Source: an uncultured Eubacteriales bacterium (GTDB lineage Bacteria; Bacillota; Clostridia; Oscillospirales; Acutalibacteraceae). Taken from it: a stretch of 64,000 nt of DNA. A program made the translations under genes and the position numbers. Where the stretch lies: positions 7,798-71,797 of the forward strand of contig CAQKRU010000003.1 in the NCBI GenBank assembly GCA_948823415.1, read 5' to 3'. The notes beneath the pieces were generated by a model. It worked only from the letters and a program-made list of their open reading frames with translations, ran no database searches and was not told where the DNA came from. This document shows positions 1 through 36,165 of this stretch, piece after piece. Numbering within the stretch: the stretch's first letter is position 1; every line of letters starts with the position of its first letter.

Positions 1-486
1 AAATTGATGTCTGCGGATTTGGTGATTTTTGTCCTTGATGGTTCAAGATCCTTGACAGACGGCGAAGTTGACCTACTTAATTCTATAAAAGAAAATAAAA
101 ACGTGCTGGCGGTTGTAAATAAATCTGACTTGAATCAGGTTTTGGACTGCGATGCTATTAAAAAATTTGTTAAAGATGTTGTTAAAATTTCGGCCAAAAC
201 TGGCGCTGGAGCTGAAGAGTTGGAGAAAAGCGTCCTGAAGATCCTTGAAGTGGCGCAGGTTGACCCTTCAGAGGGCATTTTGGTCTCGGAGCGACAATAT
301 TTTACGGTGAAAACTGCGCTGAAATCAGTTAAAGAAGCTTTGTCAGCTTTGGAGAGCGGCCTCACTTTGGACGCTGTGACGGTCTCGATAAACAGCGCTA
401 TTGACGAACTCTTAGTTTTGACTGGCGAAAAGGCGACTCAAGTGGTTGTGGATGAACTCTTTTCGAAGTTTTGCGTTGGAAAGTAA
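1..486 (+). CDS. mnmE: tRNA modification GTPase MnmE, C-terminal part (5' end lies outside the window)
   Basis: The ORF is open to the window edge. It has the G-domain NKSD motif and the family-typical C-terminus ...FCVGK*. mnmG-rsmG follow, as in the conserved origin-proximal cluster. Confidence 0.9.
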   Translation, partial: KLMSADLVIFVLDGSRSLTDGEVDLLNSIKENKNVLAVVNKSDLNQVLDCDAIKKFVKDVVKISAKTGAGAEELEKSVLKILEVAQVDPSEGILVSERQYFTVKTALKSVKEALSALESGLTLDAVTVSINSAIDELLVLTGEKATQVVVDELFSKFCVGK

Positions 487-543
487 AAGGCTGTAGACTC
501 AGTGTTCGTGCCGGTTTTAGAGAGATGAAAAAGAAGGGATATT

Positions 544-2424
544 TTGAAATTTTTTGCAGGAGAATACGATGTGGCGGTGATTGGCGCCGGTCACGCGGGC
601 ATAGAAGCGGCTTTGGCTGCGGCTCGGCTGGGCTGCAAGACGGCCGTCTTCACCATAAACATGGATGCAGTGGGGAATTGTCCATGTAATCCGTCTATTG
701 GAGGGACGGCGAAGGGCCATCTGGTGAGAGAAATCGATGCTTTGGGTGGAGAGATGGGCAAAACGGCGGACGAATGCTTTTTGCAGAGCCGGATGTTGAA
801 TCGCGGGAAGGGCCCTGCAGTGCACTCTTTGAGGGTTCAGATCGATCGAGAAAAATACAAGAGCACGATGAAATATAAGCTCGAGAGGCAGAAAAATTTG
901 CATCTTAGACAGGCCGAAATCGTTGAAATATCTAGGGCTGACGAGGATTTTTGGAGCTTAACTACGCGGATGGAGGCTATTTATCGCGCCAGGACTGTGA
1001 TTATTGCTACGGGGACGTACCTTAAAAGCAGGATTTTTGTGGGTGAGGTGTCTTTTGAGAGTGGTCCGGACGGGATTTTTCCTTCATCTTTTTTAAGTAA
1101 ATCTTTGGTAGAACTAGGAGTCCGGCTCCGTCGCTTTAAAACTGGCACTCCGGCACGGATTTTGCGGTCTAGTATAGATTTTTCTAAATTAGAAATTCAA
1201 AATGGTGACGAGAAAATTACGCCATTTTCTTACGAAAGCCGCGGGGGCGGGGGGAACAGGGTTTATTGCCATGTGGGGTACACGAGCGCGAGGACTCGCG
1301 AGGTAATTCTGCAGAATATTCACCGATCGCCGCTGTATGCGGGCTTGATTGAGGGCAAGGGGCCTCGATATTGTCCGAGCATCGAGGATAAATTCGTTCG
1401 ATTTGCAGATAAGGAGCGACATCAATTTTTTGTGGAGCCATGTGGTTTGAACACAGATGAGATGTACATTCAGGGGCTGTCGTCGTCGTTGCCGGAAGAT
1501 GTCCAAATTCAATTTTATCGATCGCTACCGGGCTTTGAGAATGCGATATTGATGCGGCCTGCGTATGCTATCGAGTATGATTGCATTGATCCGTTGCAGT
1601 TGAATTCTACCTTGGAATTTGCCGAACTGCCGGGATTGTTCGGCGCAGGGCAATTTAATGGAAGCTCAGGGTACGAGGAAGCTGCGGCTCAGGGGTTAAT
1701 AGCCGGGATTAACGCAGCACAGAAGGTAAAAAATCGGCCACCGCTGGAGTTGGACCGATCCACATCGTATATAGGCACGCTGATCGACGATTTGGTCACA
1801 AAGGGAGTCAGCGACCCGTACAGAATGATGACGTCGCGCTCGGAGTATCGGTTGGTTTTGCGGCAGGATAACGCGGACGAACGATTGACGCCGATTGGAC
1901 GCGAGGTAGGACTAATCTCCGACGAACGATGGGAAGTGTTTGAAGAGAAGCAATTAACAAAAAAAAGAGAGCTCGAACGCATAAAAAATGTAGTAATACC
2001 GCCGTCCGTGGAGGTTAACGCGACGCTTGTTTCACGTGAAACATCTGAAATTTCTACTGGCACACGGATGGTTGATCTGCTAAAAAGACCGCAAATTACC
2101 TATGATTGCTTGCAGGGATTTGACCTAAATCGTCCTGAGATCGACGAAGAAATCTTCGAGCAAATCGAAGTAGAAATAAAATACGAGGGGTACATAAAAA
2201 AGCAGCTGTCGCAAATCGAAGCCATGAAGCGGCTGGAGTCAAAAAAGTTGCCAACGGATGTCGATTATTCGCAGGTTGTGGGGCTTCGACTGGAGGCAGT
2301 CGAAAAATTAAACCTAGTGAAGCCAGAGAACATCGAGCAAGCTTCAAGAATTTCTGGCGTGAGTCCTGCAGATATCTCAGTTTTGCTGATTTGGATAAAG
2401 CAAAAATCGCAAAGGAGTGGATAA
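544..2424 (+). CDS. mnmG: tRNA uridine 5-carboxymethylaminomethyl modification enzyme MnmG (GidA)
   Basis: 626-aa ORF with a TTG start. The N-terminal FAD fingerprint DVAVIGAGHAGIEAA is present, the length is full GidA-like, and it sits between mnmE and rsmG. Confidence 0.95.
   Translation: MKFFAGEYDVAVIGAGHAGIEAALAAARLGCKTAVFTINMDAVGNCPCNPSIGGTAKGHLVREIDALGGEMGKTADECFLQSRMLNRGKGPAVHSLRVQIDREKYKSTMKYKLERQKNLHLRQAEIVEISRADEDFWSLTTRMEAIYRARTVIIATGTYLKSRIFVGEVSFESGPDGIFPSSFLSKSLVELGVRLRRFKTGTPARILRSSIDFSKLEIQNGDEKITPFSYESRGGGGNRVYCHVGYTSARTREVILQNIHRSPLYAGLIEGKGPRYCPSIEDKFVRFADKERHQFFVEPCGLNTDEMYIQGLSSSLPEDVQIQFYRSLPGFENAILMRPAYAIEYDCIDPLQLNSTLEFAELPGLFGAGQFNGSSGYEEAAAQGLIAGINAAQKVKNRPPLELDRSTSYIGTLIDDLVTKGVSDPYRMMTSRSEYRLVLRQDNADERLTPIGREVGLISDERWEVFEEKQLTKKRELERIKNVVIPPSVEVNATLVSRETSEISTGTRMVDLLKRPQITYDCLQGFDLNRPEIDEEIFEQIEVEIKYEGYIKKQLSQIEAMKRLESKKLPTDVDYSQVVGLRLEAVEKLNLVKPENIEQASRISGVSPADISVLLIWIKQKSQRSG
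2028..2043. promoter_or_regulatory. parS centromere-like site (perfect TGTTTCACGTGAAACA) inside the mnmG coding sequence
   Basis: Exact 16-bp palindrome matching the Firmicute parS consensus TGTTNCACGTGAAACA, read directly from the sequence. Confidence 0.8.
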
Positions 2425-2426
2425 AA

Positions 2427-3140
2427 ATGGAGAATAGCTTTGTTGAATTTGAGCAAATTTTGAAAAAAAGCAACCTTGAAATATCGGAGCAAATGGTCGA
2501 AATGTTCGAAAAATACGCAGATTTGTTAATAGAATGGAACAAAAAAATGAACTTGACGGCCATAACAGAACCGCGAGAAATCGCCGTTAAGCACTTTTTG
2601 GACAGCTTATTAACGCTTGACGTGTTTGAAATTCCGCACGGAGCAGCTGTTATAGATGTAGGCACAGGCGCGGGGTTTCCGGGAGTACCCATCAAAATTG
2701 TCCGGCCAGATGTTGACTTGACGCTGCTTGACAGCCTTAACAAGCGAATAAAGTTTTTGGAAGAATTGAAAAATTATTTGAAAGTTGATGTGAAGTTAAT
2801 TCACTCAAGGGCAGAAGAAGCGGCTCAAAAAGAAAATTTACGAGAATGCTTTGATGTCGCAGTATCACGCGCGGTTGCGCCTTTAAATGTTTTACTAGAA
2901 TATTGCATGCCGTTTGTGAAAGTTGGTGGAATTTTTGTTGCGCTAAAGGGTAAGAATTCCCAGTCTGAGCTAGATTTGGCTCAAAATGCGATGAAGGTTT
3001 TGAATGCAGAGATTTTCACACAAAAGAGTTTTAGTTTAGTGACTGAAAATGATCGAAATATAATTGTTTTTAAGAAAGTGGCGAAAAATTCGGAGATTTA
3101 TCCTCGAAATAGCGCGAAAATTAAGAAAAAACCATTATAA
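2427..3140 (+). CDS. rsmG: 16S rRNA (guanine527-N7)-methyltransferase RsmG (GidB)
   Basis: ATG at 2427 is preceded by AAAGGAG. The SAM-binding motif VIDVGTGAGFPG is present. Position directly after mnmG. Confidence 0.9.
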   Translation: MENSFVEFEQILKKSNLEISEQMVEMFEKYADLLIEWNKKMNLTAITEPREIAVKHFLDSLLTLDVFEIPHGAAVIDVGTGAGFPGVPIKIVRPDVDLTLLDSLNKRIKFLEELKNYLKVDVKLIHSRAEEAAQKENLRECFDVAVSRAVAPLNVLLEYCMPFVKVGGIFVALKGKNSQSELDLAQNAMKVLNAEIFTQKSFSLVTENDRNIIVFKKVAKNSEIYPRNSAKIKKKPL

Positions 3141-3256
3141 AAAAGCATAATTAAATTTCTAAAAGAGAAAAATTTTTTACCTACACAAAAGGGTAAGAAA
3201 TTCTTTTTTTTTATGTTATCATCGAGGTAAATCAGCGTTGCGCAGGGGGGATTCTT

Positions 3257-4081
3257 TTGTTTTGTTTTCAAAATTCGGACAAAATTCGCAGCATACCGGT
3301 GATCCAGATTGAGCCGAGTCGCTCTCAGCCGAGGATTTGCTTCTCTAAAGAGGCTTTGGCGGGACTTTCTCGGAGCATCAGGGAAAATGGGATCTTGCAG
3401 CCGATTTCGGTTAGGAGAGTTTTCGCATCTAAATTTGAGTTAGTTGCAGGAGAGAGACGTCTTCGAGCCGCGATAATGGCGGGATTTAAGACGGTTCCGT
3501 GCGTGATTTTGGATTGCGACGAGACTCAGGCGGCAGTTTTTGCTTTGTTAGAAAATTTGCAGCGAGCGAATTTAAACATGTTTGAAGAGGCCGAAGCGAT
3601 GCGGAATTTGATTGAAATTTGGGGATTGACGCAAGAATCAGCCGCGAAAAAGATGGGGAAAAAGCAGTCAACAATCGCGAACAAATTAAGACTTTTGAAG
3701 CTGGATGATGAAGAACGAGCATTGATAAAAAAGGCGAACTTGAGCGAGCGGCATGCTAGAGCCATTTTAAAGCTCGGAAGCAAGGAACAACGCAAATTGA
3801 TGATAAAAAAGATAGCTGAAAAAAATCTAAATGTGTTGGACACGGAAGCTTTAATTGAATCAATTTTGAAGGGCGACGTGTTAGGATCTTTTGAAAATTC
3901 TGATAAAAAATTTGTTGTTAAAGATTTAAACTTTTTTAAAAATGCTATCAATGACGCTTTGGACTTGATGAAGATATCTCGGGAGGGCGTACAGTATATT
4001 CACAACGAGACGGATGAATATTTGGAATATATGGTTAAAATCCCGAAGGGACGGGACTCTAAGAAGGTAGAAAGCGCATGA
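3257..4081 (+). CDS. ParB-family protein, Noc (nucleoid occlusion)-like by position
   Basis: ParB-box motifs (GILQPISVRR, LVAGERRLRAA) are present. TTG start 6 nt after a GGGGGG tract. It occupies the noc slot between rsmG and parA, but Noc versus a second ParB cannot be separated by eye. Confidence 0.75.
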   Translation: MFCFQNSDKIRSIPVIQIEPSRSQPRICFSKEALAGLSRSIRENGILQPISVRRVFASKFELVAGERRLRAAIMAGFKTVPCVILDCDETQAAVFALLENLQRANLNMFEEAEAMRNLIEIWGLTQESAAKKMGKKQSTIANKLRLLKLDDEERALIKKANLSERHARAILKLGSKEQRKLMIKKIAEKNLNVLDTEALIESILKGDVLGSFENSDKKFVVKDLNFFKNAINDALDLMKISREGVQYIHNETDEYLEYMVKIPKGRDSKKVESA

Positions 4082-7260: not shown

Positions 7261-8310
7261 TTACTCAATGTCCGCGCGGGCCCACTGGGCTAGCAGACAT
7301 GTGTAGATCTTGCCGGGCAGCATAGTGAGTGGGGTTCCGTCGTTAGTGAAGTAGGAGAATGGCGATGTATCGGTATCTCGGGCCCAGGTGATGTCGATGC
7401 ATTTGCCGTGAGAGATGTATTTTCCGGTGCCGCGGCCGATGATGTCGAGCGCGAGAAGCTCGGTATTATCGATGTTTTGGCCCGAAACGTTCATCAAAAT
7501 GATGTTCGGCTTGCTGTTCTGCCTTTTGACGTTGTCGTCCATCTGAGGGCGATTAAACTGGGAAATTAGGTAGGTCTGAGTGGGCTCGTCGTAGGCAAAA
7601 ACGGTGCTCTTGTAGCCCGAAAACTTAGCGGTGACCTTTGTAGCGGTCGTGCCGCCTAGAACTTGCGAATCATCGCCGAATCTCTGCGGGTAGGAGTAAT
7701 CCGTGTTCCACTGAGTGCGAAAATCGTGGGCTTTGATGCCCTCGCCGAGCTTCTCGCCAGACGTTAGGGCACTGTGCTCGAGACCCAGATTTTTACGTCT
7801 GGCCGGGTCTCGCCACATGAACTGACCCTTGATAAGGTCGATAGAATCGATGTAGCCGCTCTTCAGGATGCTGTAAGCGTGCGTGCTGCCGCCCAGGTGA
7901 ACGTAGATGGCGTCGAGGCTCTTAGCAATGCTGATGAAATACGGTCGAGAACTGCGCACGCTGCCGATGGCCGGAACTGCAGAGGGATCTTTAAACACGC
8001 CCAAAATCCGAGTTATACCGCCTTCTGTGGGGCATTCGTAAATTATATCTGCCTCTGTGACGCCTAGGAGGGGCTGTCCGGAATGCAGATTGTTTATCAT
8101 GATAGCTACGGGACGATTATTCACTTTGCCTGCGTCGACAGGGAGCCCGGTCAGAGGGTTTTTGCTCGGGTTTTCAGCACGGACTTCCTCGCTTTGTGAA
8201 TATTCTGTAACGGAATTATTTTTCTGATTTAGAAAAAAGAATCCGGCAGCTGCAACAATAATTATAATGGGAAAAACTGCCACAACAACGATTTTTGACA
8301 TATTTTTCAT
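7261..8310 (-). CDS. DUF3048 (YerB-like) membrane-anchored protein
   Basis: ATG at 8310 with GGAGG upstream. N-terminal TM segment, and the motifs NRPVAIMINN...ITRILGVF...VRSSRPYF resemble B. subtilis YerB. The longer ORF to 8595 lacks an RBS and overlaps the ppa start. Confidence 0.75.
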   Translation of the reverse strand: MKNMSKIVVVAVFPIIIIVAAAGFFFLNQKNNSVTEYSQSEEVRAENPSKNPLTGLPVDAGKVNNRPVAIMINNLHSGQPLLGVTEADIIYECPTEGGITRILGVFKDPSAVPAIGSVRSSRPYFISIAKSLDAIYVHLGGSTHAYSILKSGYIDSIDLIKGQFMWRDPARRKNLGLEHSALTSGEKLGEGIKAHDFRTQWNTDYSYPQRFGDDSQVLGGTTATKVTAKFSGYKSTVFAYDEPTQTYLISQFNRPQMDDNVKRQNSKPNIILMNVSGQNIDNTELLALDIIGRGTGKYISHGKCIDITWARDTDTSPFSYFTNDGTPLTMLPGKIYTCLLAQWARADIE

Positions 8311-25694: not shown

Positions 25695-28685
25695 TTAGTC
25701 GTCGATAACGTCTACGTTTACCTCATTATTATCGTCGTCGTCATTGTCGGTATTGGTTTCATTCAGACTTTTCTTTAGCCTCCTAGTAGGATTAACTTTT
25801 TTTGCTCTTTTCTTTATTGTTTTCGTTGTTTTCGTAGGACGGTTAACAAGCCGTTTTTTCTTACTTGTCGTTTTTTTCGGTTTGCTCTCTTCTTCATTAT
25901 TGGCATTGTTATTCTGATCTACATCGTCATCGTCGTTACCATTTATAACGTCGCTTTTTATCTCTTGAGTATCTTTACTATCGTCAATATCATCTTTTTC
26001 GTCATTGTTATTCAAGTCATCACTTTTACTTTCACTGCTTGCAACTTCTTTGTTACTCTTGTTGTCGTTATCTTTAGTATCAATTGAATGGAGTTTTCCC
26101 TTATAAATATATGACACGCCAGTATTTTCATCTATAATTAATTCGTCTGCATTAAGCTCCACTTTATTGAGATCACTCATATAATACCGCCATTCATCTC
26201 TTAGATCCTTAAAAGCAAAATGTCCAATCGTAGCCTTTTTACAAATTAGAGGTGCATTAAATTTTTCAAGGTTTTTGGTCAACGCAAACGCTTGTTCACC
26301 CACATAAAATGTTTCACAATTTTCCGGGCAAGTAACACTTTTCATATTAGAACACTCAAAAAATGCTTCTTTTTCCAAAATTAATTCATCTACGTTTTCT
26401 GGAAACTCTAACGATCCTAAATTTATGCAACTAGCAAAAGCACCTTCTCCGATATTTATTTTATTATACTTGCTTTTCGTATTAAAAATTATATCCTCAA
26501 GTGTATTCATATATCTAAAAGTGTTAGACTCTATAGTTATATTCTCTTGCCCACCCTCAAAAATTATTTTCTTAAGTTTTCTCATATGTCGAGCGTAATT
26601 ATCCCGATTACCGTAGAAGTCTTCAGGTAACGAACATATAGTAATATTTTTTGCATCTTCTGCTATTGTTACTTTTTCTAAATCCTTATTAAAACCAAAT
26701 CGATTTGCTAGACAAATTTTCTCAACTGAAAACTTGTTTCCGTTTTCATCAAATACTTCTCCATGTATCGTGATATCTTTTACATTTCTTTTATACAAAA
26801 ATGGATAAAAAACACCATTATCATCAGAATAATATGCGTTTTCATCATTATCAAATAGAATACTTTGGGGTAAATTCGCATACTTTTTCTTATGCCGAAT
26901 ATCATCAGTGGCTTTTCTTATTAAAAAGGTGTTTAGTTTGCTTTTTGATTTAGGTTGTAATTTATCCCAATCTCTATTATTGTGTTTTAGATCACTTACA
27001 AGTTCAAAGCACTTGTCAATACCAAAATATGTCTTGCCTTTAAAATCTTCTACTATGTTCTCGTTGATAAGTATAAACTTTAATGCTTGTTCAAGTTCAA
27101 ACCTTTTGTTACATCCAGAATTGTAGACATTGTTTCGTTGGTAAATTTTTGAAAATGTAAAAAATTCAGATTTAGGCATAGGCTCGCCATCATATTTAAA
27201 TAATAAACCATTGTCACTAATAGCAATATCAATCTTATTTGGGTCCATATTATCATATTTTTCATACTCTTTTAAAAATTTGTCTACTTTATCTTTTTCC
27301 GCCTTAGGAAGGTTTTCCAAAGCATCTTGGTTTTCCTCAAGCGTATCATTAATTTCTTCAAGAAGTTTTGCGGAAAGTTGTTCCATTGGGTTTTCGTTCA
27401 AAACTAGACACTTTAGAGCTTTGCTTAAATACCTAGCGTTTTTAGGAAAATAGCCAAGGCCACTTTCTTGGAATTTATTCACAAATGCAAAAAAATTAGA
27501 TTCAGTCATAGGTTCATAATTCTTATCATGATTCTTACTATATTCATATACTGTCTCATTGTCGTCAATCTTAATACGAATCCATACCGGATCTATATTG
27601 TTCAAGTCTATTCTGTCATTTTTTTCTCCATCATCATAATTATCGTTATTATTACTGTTGGCTGTTTCCATAGCTTTTTTCGTAGCCATTGAGGTTTGAT
27701 TTTCATCGCTACTGCTATTGTCGCTGCCTGCTGTGTTTTTGTCGTCGGTAACGCTGACGGTTGTCTCATTATTATCGTTGTCATCATCGTCGACATTGGT
27801 TTCATTTAGATGTTCCTCTGTCTCAGTAGAAGTAGAATTAACCTTTTTTGCTTTATTACGACGTTTAAAACGCCTTTTTTTCTTACGTGTCGTTTTTTCC
27901 GTTGTCGGTTTGCTATCTTCTTCATTATTACCATCACTATTCTGGTTTATATTGTCCTCATCTATGTTATTATTTTCTGCTCCATCATCATAATCATTGT
28001 CATTACTATTCGTAGCCATTGAGATTTGATTTTCATCGCCACTGCTATTATCTGTGCTTGATGTGTTTTTGTCGTCGGTAACGCTGATGGTTGTCTCATT
28101 ATTATCGTTGTCATCATCGTCGATATTGGTTTCATTTAGATTTTCCTCTGCCTCAGTAGAAGTAGAATTAACCTTTTTTGCTTTATTACGACGTTTAAAA
28201 CGCCTTTTTTTCTTACTTGTCGTTTTTTTCGTTGTCGGTTTGCTCTCTTCTTCATTATTAGCATCGTTATCGTCATTTTCTGATGATGACCCTTTGCCTG
28301 TTTGTGATGTACCGGGTTTTCCGCCCGTTCCTTTCCTACCATTTCTAGCTGCAAAGGATTCTAGGCCCATTCCAGCAAACATGGAAAAAGCCATAATTCC
28401 AAGACCGAGCAGTGGTTTAATTGCAATTCCCCGGCCACCGCTGACATTTGCCAAATCTTCGTCAGATAATTCTTTTAGCATTTCTTTCTCATACTCGAGC
28501 AGCTCTTGTGCCGAAAAGTCCACATTAAACTTCTTCATAAGCGGCATTATTTCTTCGCAAATTAACTGTCTTAAATCTTCCTCATTTGCGATTTCCTTCG
28601 CCTTATCTTCGATTCTTTCTTTCGATTTAGGATCCGAAAGTATTTGCCGATAAAATTCCTCGATTTCTTTTTTTCTATCTTCCAT
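25695..28685 (-). CDS. 996-aa protein: Nif11-like double-glycine leader, TM segment, tandem acidic/basic repeats and a BspA-type leucine-rich-repeat region
   Basis: AGGAGGAGG RBS. Residues 1-84 end ...ELSDEDLANVSGG. LRR-like units occur in residues about 640-860, for example NITIESNTFRYMNTLEDIIF and INIGEGAFASCINLGSLEFPENV. Confidence 0.85.
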   Translation of the reverse strand: MEDRKKEIEEFYRQILSDPKSKERIEDKAKEIANEEDLRQLICEEIMPLMKKFNVDFSAQELLEYEKEMLKELSDEDLANVSGGRGIAIKPLLGLGIMAFSMFAGMGLESFAARNGRKGTGGKPGTSQTGKGSSSENDDNDANNEEESKPTTKKTTSKKKRRFKRRNKAKKVNSTSTEAEENLNETNIDDDDNDNNETTISVTDDKNTSSTDNSSGDENQISMATNSNDNDYDDGAENNNIDEDNINQNSDGNNEEDSKPTTEKTTRKKKRRFKRRNKAKKVNSTSTETEEHLNETNVDDDDNDNNETTVSVTDDKNTAGSDNSSSDENQTSMATKKAMETANSNNNDNYDDGEKNDRIDLNNIDPVWIRIKIDDNETVYEYSKNHDKNYEPMTESNFFAFVNKFQESGLGYFPKNARYLSKALKCLVLNENPMEQLSAKLLEEINDTLEENQDALENLPKAEKDKVDKFLKEYEKYDNMDPNKIDIAISDNGLLFKYDGEPMPKSEFFTFSKIYQRNNVYNSGCNKRFELEQALKFILINENIVEDFKGKTYFGIDKCFELVSDLKHNNRDWDKLQPKSKSKLNTFLIRKATDDIRHKKKYANLPQSILFDNDENAYYSDDNGVFYPFLYKRNVKDITIHGEVFDENGNKFSVEKICLANRFGFNKDLEKVTIAEDAKNITICSLPEDFYGNRDNYARHMRKLKKIIFEGGQENITIESNTFRYMNTLEDIIFNTKSKYNKINIGEGAFASCINLGSLEFPENVDELILEKEAFFECSNMKSVTCPENCETFYVGEQAFALTKNLEKFNAPLICKKATIGHFAFKDLRDEWRYYMSDLNKVELNADELIIDENTGVSYIYKGKLHSIDTKDNDNKSNKEVASSESKSDDLNNNDEKDDIDDSKDTQEIKSDVINGNDDDDVDQNNNANNEEESKPKKTTSKKKRLVNRPTKTTKTIKKRAKKVNPTRRLKKSLNETNTDNDDDDNNEVNVDVIDD
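27681..28265. repeat. Two about 255-bp near-identical coding repeats (period about 330 bp) inside the 996-aa gene; a third diverged copy lies at about 25790-25905
   Basis: 27681-27935 versus 28010-28265 align with few mismatches. They encode ...EEESKPTT.KTT.KKKRRFKRRNKAKKVNSTSTE.EE.LNETN.DDDDNDNNETT.SVTDDKNT... Confidence 0.85.
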
Positions 28686-28715
28686 AAAAATCCTCCTCCT
28701 TTTTAATTTGCATAT

Positions 28716-28744
28716 ATTATACTATAAACAAAATGAAAAGTCAA
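28716..28744 (-). promoter_or_regulatory. Promoter of the 996-aa gene (TTGACT-N17-TATAAT)
   Basis: Minus strand reads TTGACTtttcattttgtttatagTATAAT, about 30 nt upstream of the RBS. Confidence 0.6.
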
Positions 28745-29126
28745 ATATTTTTCCTAAAATATAAGAATAAGTATCTGTGTTTTTGTCTTAATTCACTAAT
28801 TTTTCGTGTTTGCTAAGATGTAGATCGTTTTCCAAATTTAATGCCCCTCCTAAAATGTTTGTACAAAATGCGCCGATTCTTGGTTGCCATGTGGCCAACT
28901 TTTCGCTCTGTAAAACTGAACAATCTGGTACTAATAAAACGTTTTATGTTCATTTTTGTGTAACGACAAAAAACAAACCAATAAAACTTGGCATCGATTT
29001 AAATTCGGTACCAGGAGGTGTGGTTCTGCTCCATTAGGATATGAAGTTTTATAATTAAGGTAACTATTATAGGCAATTCACAGGTTTAGCTGAGTAACAA
29101 AATTTTAGCAAGATTATGGGAAAGAA

Positions 29127-29155
29127 TTGATTTTTAAATAGCTTTGTGCTATAAT
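29127..29155 (+). promoter_or_regulatory. Promoter (TTGATT-N17-TATAAT) upstream of the family C gene pair
   Basis: Direct reading. About 150-nt leader to the ATG at 29312. Confidence 0.55.
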
Positions 29156-29311
29156 TCACCCAAATATTAGGGGGAGTTGATTGAGAAAAAGAAAAACAGA
29201 AATTTAAATGAGGGAGTGTCTGAAAAAGCTAATTAAAATACGGAAAAACAAATTAATTTAGGTTTAAGCAATGGATTATTCAAAATTTGTATCAAAAAAG
29301 GAGAAATAAAA

Positions 29312-29983
29312 ATGAAAAATATCTTAAAAATCAAGAAACTTTCTTCAGCATTGTTAGTTGGAACTATTGTGATAGGAAGCAGCTCTATGACTGTAAAGGC
29401 TGCGTATAAAGGAAGCCCTAGTATGACAATCTATAATTTAGCCTCTGGAGCAAACCCTGAAGGCCATAATTACAAAGATATTCCTATTTTAGAGTTTAGT
29501 GAGGAAACCGGGGAAAGTAGAATAACAATTGAGAGCTATGAAAATTCTGATGATAGCGTTGAACGTTTTGCCGAAGGAAACGGGGAATGGTTTATTTTTA
29601 ATGGGAAAAAGATACCGAAATCCACTCGTATTGGGGATGTACACCCAAATGGAAGTAATATGCTTATTGTTGTTAACGGAAACCCCGATAAGCCTGCTGA
29701 TGAAGTTTGGGAAGAGACCGAGTACGACAGAGGTCAAATACTAGTAAATAAAAAACGTGTTGATCTTGACAGTAAAGAGGAAGAAAAACTGGGAGAGGAT
29801 AACGTATATCGGAAGGAACCAATATATGAATATCCTTATCTAAAAACAGGTAAACATCAAGTTAGGTTTATTAATGGCCAGAGAGTGGACGAAGACAAAA
29901 ATTTTGGAGATTATGAAAACGTAAATGGAGATAATAGCGTTATTGTTTATACTAGTAATGATCCAAACGCTCTTCCACAATAA
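29312..29983 (+). CDS. Exported protein, family C member 1 (unknown)
   Basis: AAGGAGAaataaaaATG. Signal peptide MKNILKIKKLSSALLVGTIVIGSSSMTVKA. Confidence 0.7.
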   Translation: MKNILKIKKLSSALLVGTIVIGSSSMTVKAAYKGSPSMTIYNLASGANPEGHNYKDIPILEFSEETGESRITIESYENSDDSVERFAEGNGEWFIFNGKKIPKSTRIGDVHPNGSNMLIVVNGNPDKPADEVWEETEYDRGQILVNKKRVDLDSKEEEKLGEDNVYRKEPIYEYPYLKTGKHQVRFINGQRVDEDKNFGDYENVNGDNSVIVYTSNDPNALPQ

Positions 29984-30079
29984 AAAATTTAAAAAAGTAT
30001 TTATGGTTAATACCCCATTTGCAAAGCGTTTTGCTTAGCAGAACGGGAGCCGACATCAATTTATAAAGGAGAAATAAAA

Positions 30080-30781
30080 ATGAAAAATATGTTAGGAATA
30101 AAGAAGATTTCATCGATACTGTTAGTTGGAACTATGGCGGTAGGAAGCAGTGCTATGGGTGCAAAAGCTTCAAACAATAATTATTGGCGTTCTAAAAATA
30201 ATTACATGTTTTATGACCCTAATGACCCAAATGAGCCCTTTCAAGTCCATGGCTTTGGCAGAATTGATAAGAATGAACTTATAAAAAACTCAGTACTTCA
30301 GGGGGAAGAAGAGGAGCTGAAATATTATCAAAACGGAAAAGAGATAAGCCCATATACTTATACTGAGAAAGTAACAGGATCTGACGATATGCTTATTGTT
30401 ACCAATGACACAGACAGACCTAAAGATAAAGTTTATGAGGAAACAAAAAAAGCAATAACGGAAAGAAAAGAAGTAGATCTTACTGTACTTAATAAAGATA
30501 CGAAAGAGACAAAAAGCTACACTCTAGATGTTTCGCCATACGAAAGTATGGATGATGTCTCGGACAGTTTTTTAACCGACAAATATGGTAAAAAATATCC
30601 ATCGTATTACTTTTCTTATAACGGTTTATATACTGATACAGGTCTTAAAGCAAGCGATGTGGATACTAATAAATATGGGAATATAAATATAGGCATAGGC
30701 TCTCATGATTCTGAGGAAGAGGAAGATAATTCCAATATTGTTGATTATTATTGTAACTGTTTAACACAGAAGAAGGGGTAA
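30080..30781 (+). CDS. Exported protein, family C member 2 (paralog), C-terminus ...DYYCNCLTQKKG*
   Basis: Same RBS string. Signal peptide MKNMLGIKKISSILLVGTMAVGSSAMGAKA. Shares the motif MLIV.N...D.P.D.V.EET. Confidence 0.7.
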   Translation: MKNMLGIKKISSILLVGTMAVGSSAMGAKASNNNYWRSKNNYMFYDPNDPNEPFQVHGFGRIDKNELIKNSVLQGEEEELKYYQNGKEISPYTYTEKVTGSDDMLIVTNDTDRPKDKVYEETKKAITERKEVDLTVLNKDTKETKSYTLDVSPYESMDDVSDSFLTDKYGKKYPSYYFSYNGLYTDTGLKASDVDTNKYGNINIGIGSHDSEEEEDNSNIVDYYCNCLTQKKG

Positions 30782-30805
30782 GGGTTTACATCAGGAAATA
30801 TTAAA

Positions 30806-30838
30806 GGCGGTAGCATAAAAACTACCGCCCTTTTTATT
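30806..30838. terminator. Rho-independent terminator between convergent genes
   Basis: Stem GGCGGTAG/CTACCGCC with an 8-nt loop and a T-tract. Confidence 0.7.
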
Positions 30839-30913
30839 ATCGTAATAATTTTTAAAAATACTAACAATTACATCCAAAAGTATTGGTACGAAGTATAACT
30901 ACCAGCTTCAGAT

Positions 30914-31390
30914 CTATTTTTCTGGGAATTCAACTTCTATGTTGTTAAGATTATTTTCTTTATCGCAGTCATCATCATAATACTTTTCCATAGCTCGTGC
31001 TTGCGAACGTTTAATTTCGGATTCAAGTTCTTTGATTAATTTATTAGAGTCACTGAGAACTTTTGTTCTTATTAGATCTTTTTCATTTTCGGAGGCGGAG
31101 TTCCACCTGTTACCGGATGCAAATTTTTCGCTTAAAAATTCAGCATTTAATTTTATACAGGACTCCTTGTAAGTAGGATCGAGTTTTTCAAATTTTTCAT
31201 TTTGCTTTTGATTTAAAGGTGACAAATACAAATTTTTTGCAATAGATCTTATTTTATCTGGATCTTCTGGCAAACTAGCACTTACGGTATGGCCGATTAA
31301 TGGACACAAAAATGAAAGAACACACCCAAACAAGATGGCCTTAACCGAAATTTTCTTTTTCACATTTAAACTTGACATACTTTTTTTCAT
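30914..31390 (-). CDS. Exported helical protein, family B member 1; C-terminal YYDDDCDKENNLNNIEVEFPEK*
   Basis: Signal peptide MKKSMSSLNVKKKISVKAILFGCVLSFLC. AGGAGA RBS. Confidence 0.7.
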   Translation of the reverse strand: MKKSMSSLNVKKKISVKAILFGCVLSFLCPLIGHTVSASLPEDPDKIRSIAKNLYLSPLNQKQNEKFEKLDPTYKESCIKLNAEFLSEKFASGNRWNSASENEKDLIRTKVLSDSNKLIKELESEIKRSQARAMEKYYDDDCDKENNLNNIEVEFPEK

Positions 31391-31415
31391 AACATTATCT
31401 CCTAATAGGTTTTAT

Positions 31416-32258
31416 TTAATCCAAAAATGTATCCCAATACGGGTCTTTTGCGATACCTTCACAGTCCCAATCAACATATTTAGAAGCCTGCTCATTTAAT
31501 TCATTAATATTTTCTTTAAAATATTGATTTTCTTTAGCAATTTTTAAATCATATTCATTTTGTGCTTTGGTGTTATCTTCTTCAAGCTTTTTACGCGCGT
31601 TTTCTAAGCGTTCTTCTTTTTTCTTTGGAGAAAGCTTTTTACCATTATTTATTGCTTCTACGGACTGATTATATTCCTCGTTGTTATTGTATAACCCCAA
31701 CTGTAAATCTCGGTCTAGCTGGGATTTATTTTCCAAATTCTCATAAAGCATAGCTGCATAATCTTCATCGTATGATGGGTAATCCCCGCCATGCATCCTT
31801 GTTTGCAGCCTTACTTCTTTATTGAACTCATTAACCTTATCGTTAAAGCTATTAATTTCGTCAATATACCTCTGTTTTTCTTTGAGCAAACCATTGCCAA
31901 AATTTTTGAAAACAGTTTCTGCCTCATCTCTTTTAGATGGAGGAATATAGTTTCCTAAATTCTTGTGTGTTTCATCGTATATATTATAAACATTTTGGTA
32001 ATGCTTCGAAAATGATTGTTGAACCTCATCTTTAGCGTTTGGGTAACATCCGAAGCCTGCAATATCTGGGAGGTCCTCATTGGCGATTATAGCTAATGTA
32101 GCGAAATGAAGTGAGTTATCTTTGCTATTACGATTAAAAGACGCGAAAACGCGATTATCACAACAAGTTGTAGTTGAGGCTAAGATTGAAAGCCCAAACA
32201 AAATGGCTTTAACCAAAATTTTCTTTTTTGCATTTAAACTTGGTGTACTTTTTTTCAT
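31416..32258 (-). CDS. Exported helical protein, family B member 2; C-terminal ...VDWDCEGIAKDPYWDTFLD*
   Basis: ATG at 32258 after AGGAGA. Signal peptide MKKSTPSLNAKKKILVKAILFG. Confidence 0.7.
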   Translation of the reverse strand: MKKSTPSLNAKKKILVKAILFGLSILASTTTCCDNRVFASFNRNSKDNSLHFATLAIIANEDLPDIAGFGCYPNAKDEVQQSFSKHYQNVYNIYDETHKNLGNYIPPSKRDEAETVFKNFGNGLLKEKQRYIDEINSFNDKVNEFNKEVRLQTRMHGGDYPSYDEDYAAMLYENLENKSQLDRDLQLGLYNNNEEYNQSVEAINNGKKLSPKKKEERLENARKKLEEDNTKAQNEYDLKIAKENQYFKENINELNEQASKYVDWDCEGIAKDPYWDTFLD

Positions 32259-32328
32259 AAAATTATCTCCTAACAAAATTTAAAAATTTCAACTCACTAA
32301 AAAATAATAATTATATTAACCGGTAGGT

Positions 32329-32868
32329 CTATTTCTTTACTGGATATTCAACCTGTACACGGTTCAAATTGAGTTCTTTATCGCAATCGTCATCACGATA
32401 TTCTTTATGATTCCTAGCTCTCTCTTGTAATTTTTTAAGTTCATCGTTGTATTTTTGCTGTGCAGCCTTCCAATCAGAATTTACACTGTGCCCATATTTT
32501 TTAAAGTAGTCTAACTTCCAATCAGAATTTGCACTGCGCCCATATTCTTTAGGGGAGGCTAAATATTGATACTCCATATTCAATATCTCAAAATGTTTTT
32601 TTGCACATTCAATCTTTGCGGATATCTCGTCATTTTTGTAGTCAGGATCCAAAGTCTCAAAGAATTCATGCTGCGCTGAGTTTTTAGAATATTCATATTC
32701 TGCAAATCCCTTCATTTGCTCGTCGTCTTTTGGAAACGGTGCATCATACATTGCCGGGCTGGCGACGTTATTAAACATTAACGCAGGGCACAAAATTGCA
32801 CACCCAAACAAAATGGCCTTAGCCAAAATTTTCTTTTTTGCATTTAAACTTGACGTACTTTTTTTCAT
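32329..32868 (-). CDS. Exported helical protein, family B member 3; C-terminal YRDDDCDKELNLNRVQVEYPVKK*
   Basis: ATG at 32868. The 5' region is nearly identical to member 2. Confidence 0.7.
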   Translation of the reverse strand: MKKSTSSLNAKKKILAKAILFGCAILCPALMFNNVASPAMYDAPFPKDDEQMKGFAEYEYSKNSAQHEFFETLDPDYKNDEISAKIECAKKHFEILNMEYQYLASPKEYGRSANSDWKLDYFKKYGHSVNSDWKAAQQKYNDELKKLQERARNHKEYRDDDCDKELNLNRVQVEYPVKK

Positions 32869-32966
32869 AAAATTATCTCCTAACAAAATTTAAAAATTTC
32901 AACTCACTAAAAAATAATAATTATATCAAACGGCAGGTTGATTTTTAACAATACTGTTATCACTAC

Positions 32967-33689
32967 TTACGAGTAGTCAAAGTCTATGAGCCCAAAATTG
33001 AGTTCCCGATCACAGTCATCATAATAGTAAGTTCTATCACTATCAACTTCAGAGTTATTGCTATTGGTTACTGGATATTCAACATTTAGGCTCCTCTGAG
33101 CAGGTTTATCGCAGTCATCACATTTAATACCATTGAACTCAGTAAATAAACCTTCTCCTGGCTTGTAACGAAGAATGGAAATTTCAGGATACTTGTTTAT
33201 AATATTATCTTTATCGTAGTCAACATTATTATGAATAATCACAGTGTTAGTTCCAGGAGGAAAGTCCACGTCAGAATTAACCCTTGTAATTTTAATAGAA
33301 TAACCATCACCAGATGTATAAGACAAACCTACCTGTTCTGGGACAACCACAACTCCATTATCATTTTCCTTAATTGCTTTGAGGGAAACCGGGTTATTCA
33401 AGGTATCGGCATCAAACTGTTCGTTTGAGTTAACAGTATTAACAGGTTCAAACTCCGCGGTATTAATCACTATTTTTTGGTAATTAGACACAGGATCAAC
33501 AGGTTCAGCGGAGGTGTCGCTATAAACAGGCGAATTAAAAAGAAAAGTATATCCGCACTCAAAATCTCCGTTTTCCAAGCGTTCTACTTCACCTAAACAA
33601 GCATAGCTTGGAAGAGCTAATGCAGATGAAAGGCTACATATAGCCAGTGCCGTGGTCGACAAATTGCGCAAAAAGTTTTTCTTTTTCAA
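32967..33689 (-). CDS. Exported protein, family D member 1, with two copies of the DDCD motif at its C-terminus
   Basis: TTG start after AAGGAGAG. Signal peptide MKKKNFLRNLSTTALAICSLSSALALPSYA. C-terminus ...CDDCDKPAQRSLNVEYPV...YYYDDCDRELNFGLIDFDYS*. Confidence 0.65.
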   Translation of the reverse strand: MKKKNFLRNLSTTALAICSLSSALALPSYACLGEVERLENGDFECGYTFLFNSPVYSDTSAEPVDPVSNYQKIVINTAEFEPVNTVNSNEQFDADTLNNPVSLKAIKENDNGVVVVPEQVGLSYTSGDGYSIKITRVNSDVDFPPGTNTVIIHNNVDYDKDNIINKYPEISILRYKPGEGLFTEFNGIKCDDCDKPAQRSLNVEYPVTNSNNSEVDSDRTYYYDDCDRELNFGLIDFDYS

Positions 33690-33853
33690 AAAAATCTCTC
33701 CTTAAAAATGATATTAAAGAAATTGTAGTACAAACTGTAGAAAAAAGCAAGAATTTTTTATGGATTTTACAGAGTCTAAACTTATTGGTGAAAAAAAGCC
33801 CCGATGAAAACTTTCTCATCGGAGCTTAACCGTTGTTAACTTAATACAATATT

Positions 33854-34324
33854 TTAAGCGTTATTATTGTTGTAAGGTAAAAGTAAAGAAATCCCAGGAT
33901 TGTTTTCTCTAATTTTAGCCTCGTCGAATTCGGCCTCATCAGGAAAAACTAAAGTTTTAGTGTTAGGAAATTTTGCGTCAGAATTAATTTTTGTAATTTT
34001 CATTTTGTTTCCATTAATAACTTCAACATCTTCAGGAATAACTACGATTTGGTTGTTGTTTTCTGTAGATCCCGTAACGGCTATAGACGAGCCCCAGATA
34101 CTATCTGCTTCATAGGTTAGTGTGCAATGGCTATCTTTTTTAAAAACAATTTGTTTGTCCTCCCCAATAACAGGAAGGGCATTAGACGTGCTGGCGGGCT
34201 TAGTAAGCGTAAGCTTAGGGCCTTTATTTAATGACGCAGAGCTTGGAAGAGCTACCGCAGAAGAAAGGCAGCATATAGCCAGTGCCGTGGCCGACAAACT
34301 GCGCAAAAAGTTTTTGTTTTTCAA
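33854..34324 (-). CDS. Exported protein, family D member 2 (no DDCD tail)
   Basis: TTG start. Signal peptide MKNKNFLRSLSATALAICCLSSAVALPSSA. Shares VV.PE.V...KIT..NSD..FP with member 1. Confidence 0.65.
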   Translation of the reverse strand: MKNKNFLRSLSATALAICCLSSAVALPSSASLNKGPKLTLTKPASTSNALPVIGEDKQIVFKKDSHCTLTYEADSIWGSSIAVTGSTENNNQIVVIPEDVEVINGNKMKITKINSDAKFPNTKTLVFPDEAEFDEAKIRENNPGISLLLPYNNNNA

Positions 34325-34511
34325 AAAAATCTCTCCTTAAAATGATACTAAAGAAATTATAATATCGGATGTAGAAAAAAGCAAGCATTTTTTGTGAATT
34401 TTACAGAGATTTAAAATTGTTGCGCAGAATTTAAGTTTATTGTATAATACTAATATATTTATTTTTAAAAATAGAAATAATTTAAACACAACACACATTT
34501 TTGCGAAAGAG

Positions 34512-35423
34512 GTGATTGCGATTATTACGGTAGAAGAGTGGAATTCGCAGAACGACGCCGTTTATAAGCCATTTTTGGTGGATAGAATCAATGATGGCGG
34601 CGAAGATTTTGTCGCATATGGCGCCAAATGTGGGAATATTCCGTGCGGAGCGATATATGCAAGGCTAGAGAAGTCCGATGTGGGCGGGCGAACTCAGGCG
34701 AACGTGACGAGCTTTTTTGTTGCCTCTTTTTTTAGAGAAAAGGGCGCCGGAACGGCTTTACTGGACGCGCTCAAGCTTAGATTGAAAGACCTGAACGTAG
34801 ATGCCATCCGGGTTAACGCGGTTACTTCGCAGGAAAACGTCGATCTGATAGACAAATTTTTGCAAAAGAGAGGATTTTCACCCGCCAGACTGCTAACAGA
34901 GGTCTATTTGTTTGATCCGAAAGTTCTGGTAGAGAAAAATAAAATCATAAAATCGGCGCTGCAGGGCAGTTTTGACCTGCCACCGAAAATATCTTTTTTG
35001 CCAAAAAACCTTGTGAGCCCAGATTTACTCGAGAAGGTCAAAAATAAGGATGGCATAGATTATCCGGATGTGCTGTCTCCGTTTGCAAATGAGTTCAACT
35101 TGGACGACGAATGCACTCAGTTTGCGATTTTTGACGACAGCGAGATCGTCGGTTGGGTGACGGCTTTTCGCGTTAAAGAGAGCGCAATCCTGTATCGGTC
35201 GCTGTTTATTCGGGAAGACTACCGAAAAAAGGCCCTAGGCTTTGCGCTTTTGGGAGAATGCATAAAAAAGCATGTGGCGAAGTATTCCGATAAAATGGTG
35301 CTTTATGCGGTCGCGTTGGATAATTTAAACGCCAGAAAGCTCTTTTCGGTCTGCTTTAAGCACTATTATAAGAGCAAAAAGTACGAATTTGAGGCGATTA
35401 TGGACCTTCGGCAAGGTTTCTAA
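34512..35423 (+). CDS. Tandem-GNAT N-acyltransferase (start uncertain; ORF open from 34440)
   Basis: Two motif-A-like segments, FFREKGAGTALLDAL and IREDYRKKALGFALLGE. The extended -10 TGTATAAT at 34440-34448 argues that the TTG at 34440 is promoter rather than start codon. Confidence 0.7.
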   Translation: MIAIITVEEWNSQNDAVYKPFLVDRINDGGEDFVAYGAKCGNIPCGAIYARLEKSDVGGRTQANVTSFFVASFFREKGAGTALLDALKLRLKDLNVDAIRVNAVTSQENVDLIDKFLQKRGFSPARLLTEVYLFDPKVLVEKNKIIKSALQGSFDLPPKISFLPKNLVSPDLLEKVKNKDGIDYPDVLSPFANEFNLDDECTQFAIFDDSEIVGWVTAFRVKESAILYRSLFIREDYRKKALGFALLGECIKKHVAKYSDKMVLYAVALDNLNARKLFSVCFKHYYKSKKYEFEAIMDLRQGF

Positions 35424-35524
35424 ACCTAATATATATATAAATTTTTGGACAAGCCCTAGCATCGACGGGCTTTTGTTATATGTTTTTTGCGGATATTACG
35501 AAAATTTTACGTGGAGGGATTGCT

Positions 35525-35767
35525 ATGGAAAACATTGAGAGGACGGTTCGAGAGGAACTTGGCAAGATTGTGGAGGCCGACGTGATGGCTGTCTCGGCGG
35601 ATGAAGACATCACGAAGCTATCTCAGATGGACTCTTTGAGCGTTTTGGAGCTTATGGACATTATTGAGGAACGTTTTGATATTGAAATTTCTCTGGGAGA
35701 AATTTCTAAAATAAGGACAATAGCCGACGTGGTGCGACTTATTTTGGCGCGGGTAAAAAAAGACTAG
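35525..35767 (+). CDS. Stand-alone acyl/peptidyl carrier protein
   Basis: 80 aa with a GGAGGG RBS. The phosphopantetheine-site context QMDSLSVLELMDIIEERFDIEI is present. Confidence 0.8.
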   Translation: MENIERTVREELGKIVEADVMAVSADEDITKLSQMDSLSVLELMDIIEERFDIEISLGEISKIRTIADVVRLILARVKKD

Positions 35768-36165
35768 CTGCGGGCCATTTATTATTACCAAAAATAGTAG
35801 GCAATTTTTGAGCGAAAAATATCATAATTTTGGCATAATTAATAAAAATATTTCTGAAACTTCTAACAAAAAATGGGTTGATTTTGTCGAATTTTGTGTT
35901 ATAATTAACACATTGGCAAAACAGTTATGTTTTTTTAAGCTGAAGGGAGGGCATTTATATTTAAACTGAACAAGTTTAAACTCAAAAGGTGCTATGCAGC
36001 AAAAAAATAAAGCTGAAATAAAAAAGGGGGAGGCGCAATTTAGCCAATAAAATTGCATGTTACTCTTTCTCGGAGAAAATAAAAATTATCTTTGGGGAAT
36101 TTTATGTGCAAAAAATTTTATTTTCAGAAATTAATTTTATTGATTAAGAAAGGACTGATTTATTA

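Follow-up and report, generated by a model that had tools for sequence, protein, structure and literature searches.

A 64,000-nucleotide (nt) stretch of DNA from an uncultured Eubacteriales bacterium of the Acutalibacteraceae (contig CAQKRU010000003.1 of assembly GCA_948823415.1, forward-strand positions 7,798 to 71,797; hereafter, the window) encodes, on its reverse strand (25695..28685), a 996-amino-acid (aa) protein with BspA-type leucine-rich repeats (LRRs), the first 112 residues of which are predicted to form a two-part export signal: a Nif11-type leader that ends in a double-glycine (GG) site, followed by a Sec-type signal peptide. The open reading frame (ORF) begins with ATG, and its first 84 residues are identical to those quoted in an earlier note on this DNA, whose description of a Nif11-type layout ending in GG (a canonical motif), fused to a hydrophobic segment (residues 86 to 108) and a giant BspA-type LRR protein, holds throughout. 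The same note had taken the leader to be present rather than a Sec signal peptide, and here it needs correction: a segment with the n-h-c layout of signal peptides and a predicted cleavage site, ESFA|A, lies directly after the GG, such that both signals appear to stand in series. Our best reading, held at just under an even chance, is that the passenger would be exported through Sec and that the leader would be clipped by a C39 peptidase encoded elsewhere. The mature product is probably a surface or secreted LRR protein (a candidate adhesin or host-interaction factor), and the 996-aa protein is one of several such proteins in its genome.

The arrangement is unusual and apparently undescribed; it combines parts that are each known (Nif11 leader, GG site, Sec signal peptide). 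We found no literature account of large proteins that bear Nif11 or GG leaders, or of such leaders ahead of signal peptides, and there is no model for the composite N-terminus in NCBIfam or Pfam.

The leader and the segment behind it

The GG motif of the LRR protein, KELSDEDLANVSGG, follows the textbook pattern, with leucines at positions -15 (L70), -12 (L73), and -7 (L78), valine at -4 (V81), and glycines at -2 and -1 (G83 and G84). It is recognized by TIGR01847, the model of the bacteriocin double-glycine signal, which aligns to residues 71 to 84 and scores 18.4 bits on residues 1 to 119 and 16.4 bits on the full-length protein, passing its curated cutoff of 15.7. The Nif11 leader model, TIGR03798, reaches 17.3 bits over residues 30 to 84 of the LRR protein alone, below its curated cutoff of 32.3, but matches 31 of 40 representative N-termini of the protein family described below at an E value of ≤0.01 (best value, 1.6e-13). 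The profile-model identity put forward in the earlier note is thus upheld for the GG signal and for the family, but not by the Nif11 model for the single protein.

Further support comes from a profile of the 40 N-termini, positions 1 to 82 of which match a solved structure annotated as a "Nif11 domain-containing protein" (PDB 9zn4_A; E = 5.5e-10), in an alignment extending to that protein's terminal ELSDSELEAVAGG. The Pfam Nif11 domain (PF07862) is found in 6 of 42 large family members and also in distant short members; in the 996-aa protein, Pfam returns LRR_5 as the sole domain match. An AlphaFold (AF2) model predicts a helical bundle over residues 1 to 72 (helices 2-17, 19-29, 35-52, and 59-72; pLDDT of 80 to 89), a short helix at residues 75 to 81, and a disordered GG site. 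A structure search of this model against the PDB gave no match at E ≤ 0.001; the Nif11 homology is carried by the sequence-level match to 9zn4_A. Judged by these comparisons, residues 1 to 84 represent a diverged Nif11-type double-glycine leader, an assignment that is settled at the family level.

Alternatively, the leader could be an artefact of a wrong start codon or of chance resemblance within a low-complexity, charged N-terminus, as might be argued from the subthreshold Nif11 scores of the LRR protein alone, the missing Pfam Nif11 domain, and an N-terminus rich in glutamate and lysine. We give this next to no credence. Immediately upstream of M1 there are a strong ribosome-binding site and a promoter, indicating that translation includes the leader. 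Protein-level conservation of the module in 202 clusters, with invariant residues, effectively refutes the artefact, as do the TIGR03798 matches of family members and the match of the family profile to a solved Nif11 domain. Since the flanking genes lie on the opposite strand, the LRR gene is probably a stand-alone gene that is translated with its leader.

The segment directly after the GG reads as a signal peptide. It comprises a basic n-region (R85 and K90), a glycine-rich core of 18 aa (P91 to L108), and a c-region, S110-F-A112|A113, which places the predicted signal peptidase site at +28 after the GG; the SFAA motif is kept in the three closest relatives. Residues 86 to 108 constitute the sole hydrophobic segment of the protein (Kyte-Doolittle [KD] value, 1.69). 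The segment begins not at the extreme N-terminus but at residue 85, behind a folded, acidic leader.

Residue counts across the family point in the same direction. A lysine or arginine occurs within +1 to +8 after the GG in 84% of members (at +4 in 70/111), whereas acidic residues are nearly absent from these positions. A hydrophobic 15-mer (KD of >1.5) begins about six residues after the GG in 123 of 135 proteins, and behind the n-region comes an uncharged run (median, 27 residues). AxA motifs peak at +23 to +32 after the GG, with 45 occurrences, in comparison to 1 to 15 per 10-residue bin further downstream. Both conserved and enriched in the family, this layout is, as far as composition and position can tell, that of a signal peptidase I substrate.

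The charges on either side of the core bear on the role of the leader. Across the family, the 15-residue stretch that precedes the core has a mean net charge of -1.25 as long as the leader is present (the whole leader, -3.3), whereas the residues between the GG and the core amount to about +1, to which cleavage would add a free N-terminal amine. After the core, the mean net charge is -0.9 over 15 residues and -2.5 over 30. By these values, the positive-inside rule would be satisfied by the family segment only once the leader has been removed.

A family of giant leader-bearing proteins

An exhaustive HMMER search with residues 1 to 119 as the query, with matches clustered at 50% identity, detects the N-terminal module in at least 202 clusters at E ≤ 1e-3 and in 41 at E ≤ 1e-10. 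Of the 150 best matches, 139 have the GG (the 11 exceptions are mostly fragments or frameshifts), and nearly all have hydrophobic residues at positions -4, -7, and -12. In an alignment with a mean column identity of 36%, no variation occurs at L78, G83, or G84 and hardly any at L73, which puts the residues recognized by C39 peptidases among the best-conserved positions. Proteins of this family are named "hypothetical protein" in public databases or are unnamed, and a profile word-index search for relatives returned short proteins only.

Large proteins predominate: among the 139 motif-bearing matches, 68 are 400 to 1000 aa long and 28 are at least 1000 aa (96/139 measuring ≥400 aa), with a maximum of 4018 aa. 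Cargo domains in 42 large members include LRR_5 in 22, LRR_8 in 5, FNIP repeats in 2, and a transglutaminase and a PRANC domain in 1 each. No cell-wall-anchor domain was detected among these 42, nor was there an LPXTG motif or a second membrane segment among 111 long members. The hydrophobic segment is present in 107 of 107 members of at least 300 aa; by contrast, 7 of 28 short members fall below the same hydrophobicity threshold, several of which have cysteine-rich or hydrophilic cores resembling those of RiPPs (peptides that are made ribosomally and then modified posttranslationally).

A mouse-gut metagenome-assembled genome (MAG) of an uncultured Eubacteriales bacterium, MGBC113434 (GCA_948527295.1), contains at least two further members, LRR proteins of 1821 and 2697 aa with the same leader that are encoded in tandem (locus L005, contig CAOSWK010000003.1, 3564-9029 and 10643-18736), with a 92-aa ORF and a ThiF/E1-like gene between them. 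A second tandem pair occurs at locus L021 (5053-7950 and 7984-10299).

Several observations on individual members may be recorded here. In the closest homologue on a short contig (L002), a 1-nt deletion just before the SGG codons (545-560) breaks the frame; the corrected frame reads SGGRGIAIKPLLGLGVMAFSMFAGMGIESFAARGG, and the deletion may be a sequencing or assembly error or the mark of a pseudogene. The gene for the largest member (P0124, 4018 aa, no Pfam domain) lies directly 3' of genes for M23 and M50 peptidases and an HtrA-like protease (L010, 8462-9828 upstream). PRANC and FNIP-repeat domains are known mostly from eukaryotes, giant viruses, and intracellular symbionts, and their presence behind the leader hints at host-directed functions.

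A metagenome scan, which served as a contrast, recovered at least four loci of the canonical small-precursor type. At two of these (L016 and L018), tandem Nif11 precursors of ~100 to 120 aa end in ...ELSDEDLENVAGG followed by a glycine-rich hydrophobic core of 24 to 33 residues, and they adjoin a transporter with Peptidase_C39, ABC_membrane, and ABC_tran domains as well as a radical SAM/SPASM enzyme. Because the small precursors consist of a leader, a GG, and such a core, residues 1 to 112 of the LRR protein match a whole precursor and appear, on sequence, to be homologous to one in its entirety (i.e., to a small, Nif11-leader, class II bacteriocin-like precursor), to which a hydrophilic LRR passenger of ~880 residues was appended C-terminally. 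The part behind the GG, 912 residues including LRR_5, is too long for a RiPP precursor (~100 aa in total). The canonical cores at L016 differ from the segment of the large members in lacking both the lysine or arginine at +4 and the AxA peak at +23 to +32. The two loci (L016, 2479-14295; L018, 2801-12648) hold two to four tandem precursors each, with cores ending in RRW or RSRW and a canonical RiPP-like appearance; they further contain a second ABC transporter and a DUF7005 protein, their radical SAM enzyme is of the SPASM-TPR type, and they may represent an uncharacterized RiPP class.

Possible routes of export

In the reading that we prefer, the hydrophobic core would carry the passenger across the membrane via the Sec translocon while the folded, acidic leader stays in the cytoplasm. 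The leader would be cut after G84 by a C39 cysteine peptidase, which most likely belongs, as a domain, to an ATP-binding cassette (ABC) transporter encoded elsewhere in the genome; this cut might precede Sec targeting, so that a hidden signal peptide is exposed, or might follow insertion. The passenger may subsequently be freed at A112|A113 by signal peptidase I; failing that, N-terminal anchoring would persist. Weaker support for the Sec route comes from other LRR_5 proteins, which often have ordinary Sec or lipoprotein signals; homologues of the cargo matched through LRR_5 alone are a mix of Sec, lipoprotein, and cytoplasmic proteins. As to the leader, the clostridial C39 domain LahT150 cuts leaders of the Nif11 type; for recognition it uses only the final ~13 residues of the leader, and it accepts diverse sequences behind the cleavage site (PMC6363468).

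Several points weigh against this reading. The n-h-c assignment comes from our own residue counts across the family; strict AxA motifs occur in only about half of the members; and the universality of the hydrophobic segment in large members (107 of 107) is partly an ascertainment effect, in that the HMMER query contained the segment. After GG cleavage, the n-region would hold one or two positive charges, versus three to five lysines in the signal peptides of neighboring genes. The C-terminal flank of the 996-aa protein (ESFAARNGRKGTGGK) has a charge of +3, making it an outlier in the family and unfavorable for translocation. No C39 or ABC gene occurs within 10 kb (less at contig ends) of eight other large members from different subfamilies. 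Finally, every mechanistic step is inferred from sequence. Within the 64-kb window as well, there is neither an ABC transporter nor a C39 gene, as the earlier note had stated; the large ORFs of the window are housekeeping genes or island proteins without a Pfam match.

The hydrophobic segment might instead be a plain signal anchor, i.e., an uncleaved type II membrane anchor, with the Nif11-like domain remaining permanently cytoplasmic (for oligomerization, regulation, or partner binding) and the GG being an evolutionary leftover. The missing C39 gene near any sampled large member agrees with this view, and an N-terminal anchor would keep on the cell proteins whose only hydrophobic segment is this one and which lack both a C-terminal anchor and an LPXTG motif (0/111 members); the positive C-terminal flank of the 996-aa protein likewise disfavors clean signal-peptide behavior. 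A leftover motif should decay, however, yet the GG and positions -4, -7, and -12 are among the best-conserved in the family (139/150 matches, spanning many divergent subfamilies), and the positional enrichment of AxA speaks for processing. We therefore regard a permanent anchor as unlikely.

The earlier note had envisaged a GG-leader-dependent route for the giant protein. Spelled out, such a route would have the leader bind to the C39 domain of an ABC transporter of the peptidase-containing kind, encoded elsewhere, and be cut after the GG; the entire cargo of ~900 residues would be threaded through the transporter, and the hydrophobic segment would be an inherited bacteriocin-like core. The canonical, strongly conserved GG leader fits such a route, as do the related small precursors that adjoin transporters of this kind and the known scattering of prochlorosin-type Nif11 precursors far from their single transporter. 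Cargo recognition by peptidase-containing ABC transporters depends on the leader alone, but the cavity of PCAT1, at ~15,000 cubic angstroms, has room for about one 66-residue cargo (PMC6959990), making ABC export of cargos of 900 to 4000 residues unlikely. The family's cargos of up to 4018 aa contrast with known Gram-positive substrates of tens of residues. Moreover, this route leaves unexplained the lysine or arginine at +4 and the AxA peak, neither of which is seen in the canonical L016 cores, along with the retention of the hydrophobic segment in every large member. The leader posited by the note stands; with a Sec-like segment in series behind it, GG-dependent ABC export of so large a cargo is not the most likely route and strikes us as quite improbable.

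One gene could also yield two products: Sec and signal peptidase I would release the passenger, and the remnant kept in the membrane (leader, GG, and a hydrophobic peptide of ~28 residues), in itself a full precursor of the bacteriocin type, would be processed and exported by a C39 ABC transporter as a bacteriocin or signal. Enterococcal pheromones, which derive from lipoprotein signal peptides, provide a precedent. The class IIb bacteriocin model TIGR03949 scores 21.4 bits on residues 71 to 104 of the N-terminal fragment (cutoff, 21.5; 17.3 bits on the full-length protein) and matches 16 of 40 family members at E ≤ 0.01, and cleavage at an AxA at +23 to +32 would release peptides of about the length of the 24- to 33-residue cores of the canonical neighbors. 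Set against this, the variation among the hydrophobic segments is like that of signal peptides, with no bacteriocin-specific conserved motif besides glycines, signal-peptide remnants are normally degraded, and the idea is speculation only; we consider it very unlikely.

Beyond Sec export with leader clipping as such, the N-terminus might work as a two-key secretion signal of a new kind, in which the leader masks or partners the signal peptide and C39 cleavage licenses Sec export, or in which each gene gives rise to a surface protein plus a hydrophobic peptide of ~28 residues that is cut from the remnant and exported by a C39 ABC transporter. This broader proposal is tentative, and we lean against it.

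The usual view assigns double-glycine leaders and C39 ABC transporters to the export of peptides only and takes Sec signal peptides to suffice by themselves. That the two are joined, in a conserved and widespread manner, on giant gut-Clostridia LRR proteins suggests a connection between the GG/C39 and Sec systems of which we found no earlier account. It might be a step that controls how large surface proteins are exported, it might give C39 peptidases a new role, or signal peptides might serve a second time as bacteriocin-like peptides. As the signal peptide begins at residue 85, standard predictors are likely to miss it; in genome mining, Nif11 or GG matches on such genes could be mistaken for RiPP precursors. 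The cargos (BspA-type LRRs and, elsewhere, FNIP, PRANC, and transglutaminase) point to factors by which uncultured gut bacteria may interact with hosts or cell surfaces.

Gene layout, genomic setting, and known systems

Positions of features of the LRR gene in the window, with the residues encoded and the evidence for each
Feature	Window position	Strand	Evidence and remarks
Whole ORF, 996 aa plus stop	25695..28685	-	Own promoter-like site; neighbors on opposite strand
Sigma-70-like promoter, TTGACT-17-TATAAT	28716..28744	-	11/12 matches, ~30 nt upstream of the start codon; consensus match only
Ribosome-binding site GGAGGAGG	28692..28699	-	6 nt 5' of the ATG; read directly from the sequence
Predicted leader, residues 1-84	28434..28685	-	
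Nif11-like helical domain, residues 1-72	28470..28685	-	AF2 model; family profile versus PDB 9zn4_A; TIGR03798 in family members
Double-glycine recognition/cleavage motif LKELSDEDLANVSGG, residues 70-84	28434..28478	-	TIGR01847; predicted cut after G84
Sec-signal-peptide-like n, h, and c regions, RGIAIK-PLLGLGIMAFSMFAGMGL-ESFA, residues 85-112	28350..28433	-	Hydrophobicity and family counts; SFA|A as putative signal peptidase I site, cut after residue 112
Low-complexity region rich in D, N, K, S, and T, residues 113-365	27591..28349	-	Two ~110-aa repeats with basic cluster KKKRRFKRRNKAKK
Two copies of a ~117-aa domain, residues 366-600	26886..27590	-	Starts near WIRIKIDD at 368 and IDIAISDNG at 485
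BspA-type leucine-rich repeats (Pfam LRR_5), residues 703-827	26205..26579	-	E = 7.1e-14, 52.2 bits, cutoff 27.7
C-terminal low-complexity acidic/basic tail, residues 870-996	25698..26078	-	Degenerate third copy of the basic cluster

The repeats within the protein were located by motif positions; Tandem Repeats Finder detected no DNA-level repeat within the gene, and self-BLAST of the protein gave no off-diagonal matches. For the ~117-aa domain, we found no homologues outside the family. In the C-terminal tail, neither an LPXTG motif nor a second membrane segment was found. The basic cluster KKKRRFKRRNKAKK recurs with a 110-residue period, at residues 158 to 171 (28173..28214) and 268 to 281 (27843..27884), within acidic low-complexity surroundings, with the degenerate third copy near residue 941. 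It resembles a nuclear localization signal or a motif binding cell-wall polymers, and such clusters are unusual within a Sec-translocated region.

The gene is situated in a low-GC island (window positions 20000-36000; 32 to 38% GC, versus 45 to 53% on either side) that may have been horizontally acquired and that includes a tRNA-Pro (23542..23618) and many small predicted secreted proteins without a Pfam match. Beside the LRR gene, four small proteins with Sec signals (30914..31390, 31416..32276, 32329..32886, and 32967..33689, all on the reverse strand) apparently form an uncharacterized paralog family, of which three share the C-terminal motif Y-DDDCD[KR]E-N[LF]...[EY][FY]P and two the N-terminus MLGDNFMKKST-SLNAKKKIL.

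Some other N- or C-terminal signals were considered and set aside. There is no match to type VII secretion (T7SS) signals of the LXG/WXG type, and the protein has a membrane segment; the GlyGly-CTERM/rhombosortase system was rejected because its signal is C-terminal and belongs to Proteobacteria. Class III (type IV prepilin) signals are cut by an aspartic prepilin peptidase behind a leader of 5 to 25 residues and have a conserved glutamate at +5. They share with the LRR protein a predicted cut after a glycine, on the cytoplasmic side and in front of a hydrophobic segment; here, the +5 glutamate is missing, the leader is of the wrong kind (84 residues and folded), and the predicted protease is a C39 cysteine peptidase.

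Long or extended Sec signals of large surface proteins also bear comparison. Examples are the ~90-residue KxYKxGKxW signal of serine-rich adhesins such as GspB (exported by the accessory Sec system), the YSIRK signal, and the ESPR of autotransporters, which, like the present N-terminus, set an extension before an n-h-c signal that is otherwise normal, on adhesin-like proteins of very large size; the present core shares its richness in glycine with that of GspB. There is, however, no sequence relationship, and a double-glycine protease site is missing from those extensions, which do not consist of folded leader domains derived from bacteriocin precursors.

With Nif11-like RiPP precursors (TIGR03798/PF07862; e.g., the prochlorosin precursor ProcA, and the LahA peptides of Lachnospiraceae C6A11), the LRR protein and its relatives share a helical leader of ~70 to 80 residues ending in LS-EDL-NV-GG and the combination of a conserved leader with a hypervariable cargo, present in several copies per genome and encoded by genes that can be far from the transporter. 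The RiPP cargos measure 20 to 40 residues, whereas those here measure 300 to 4000 and start with a predicted Sec-type signal peptide; the LRR gene also has no modifying enzyme or C39 transporter nearby, and its product, taken singly, does not reach the curated Nif11 cutoff. Class IIb/IIc double-glycine bacteriocins (TIGR03949, lactobin A/cerein 7B; Bacteriocin_IIc; the L016 and L018 precursors) likewise have a GG leader followed by a glycine-rich hydrophobic peptide of ~24 to 33 residues. These bacteriocins stop after the core and are encoded beside their transporter, whereas in the present family the core commonly has a lysine or arginine at +4 and an AxA site and, in the LRR protein, is followed by ~880 residues.

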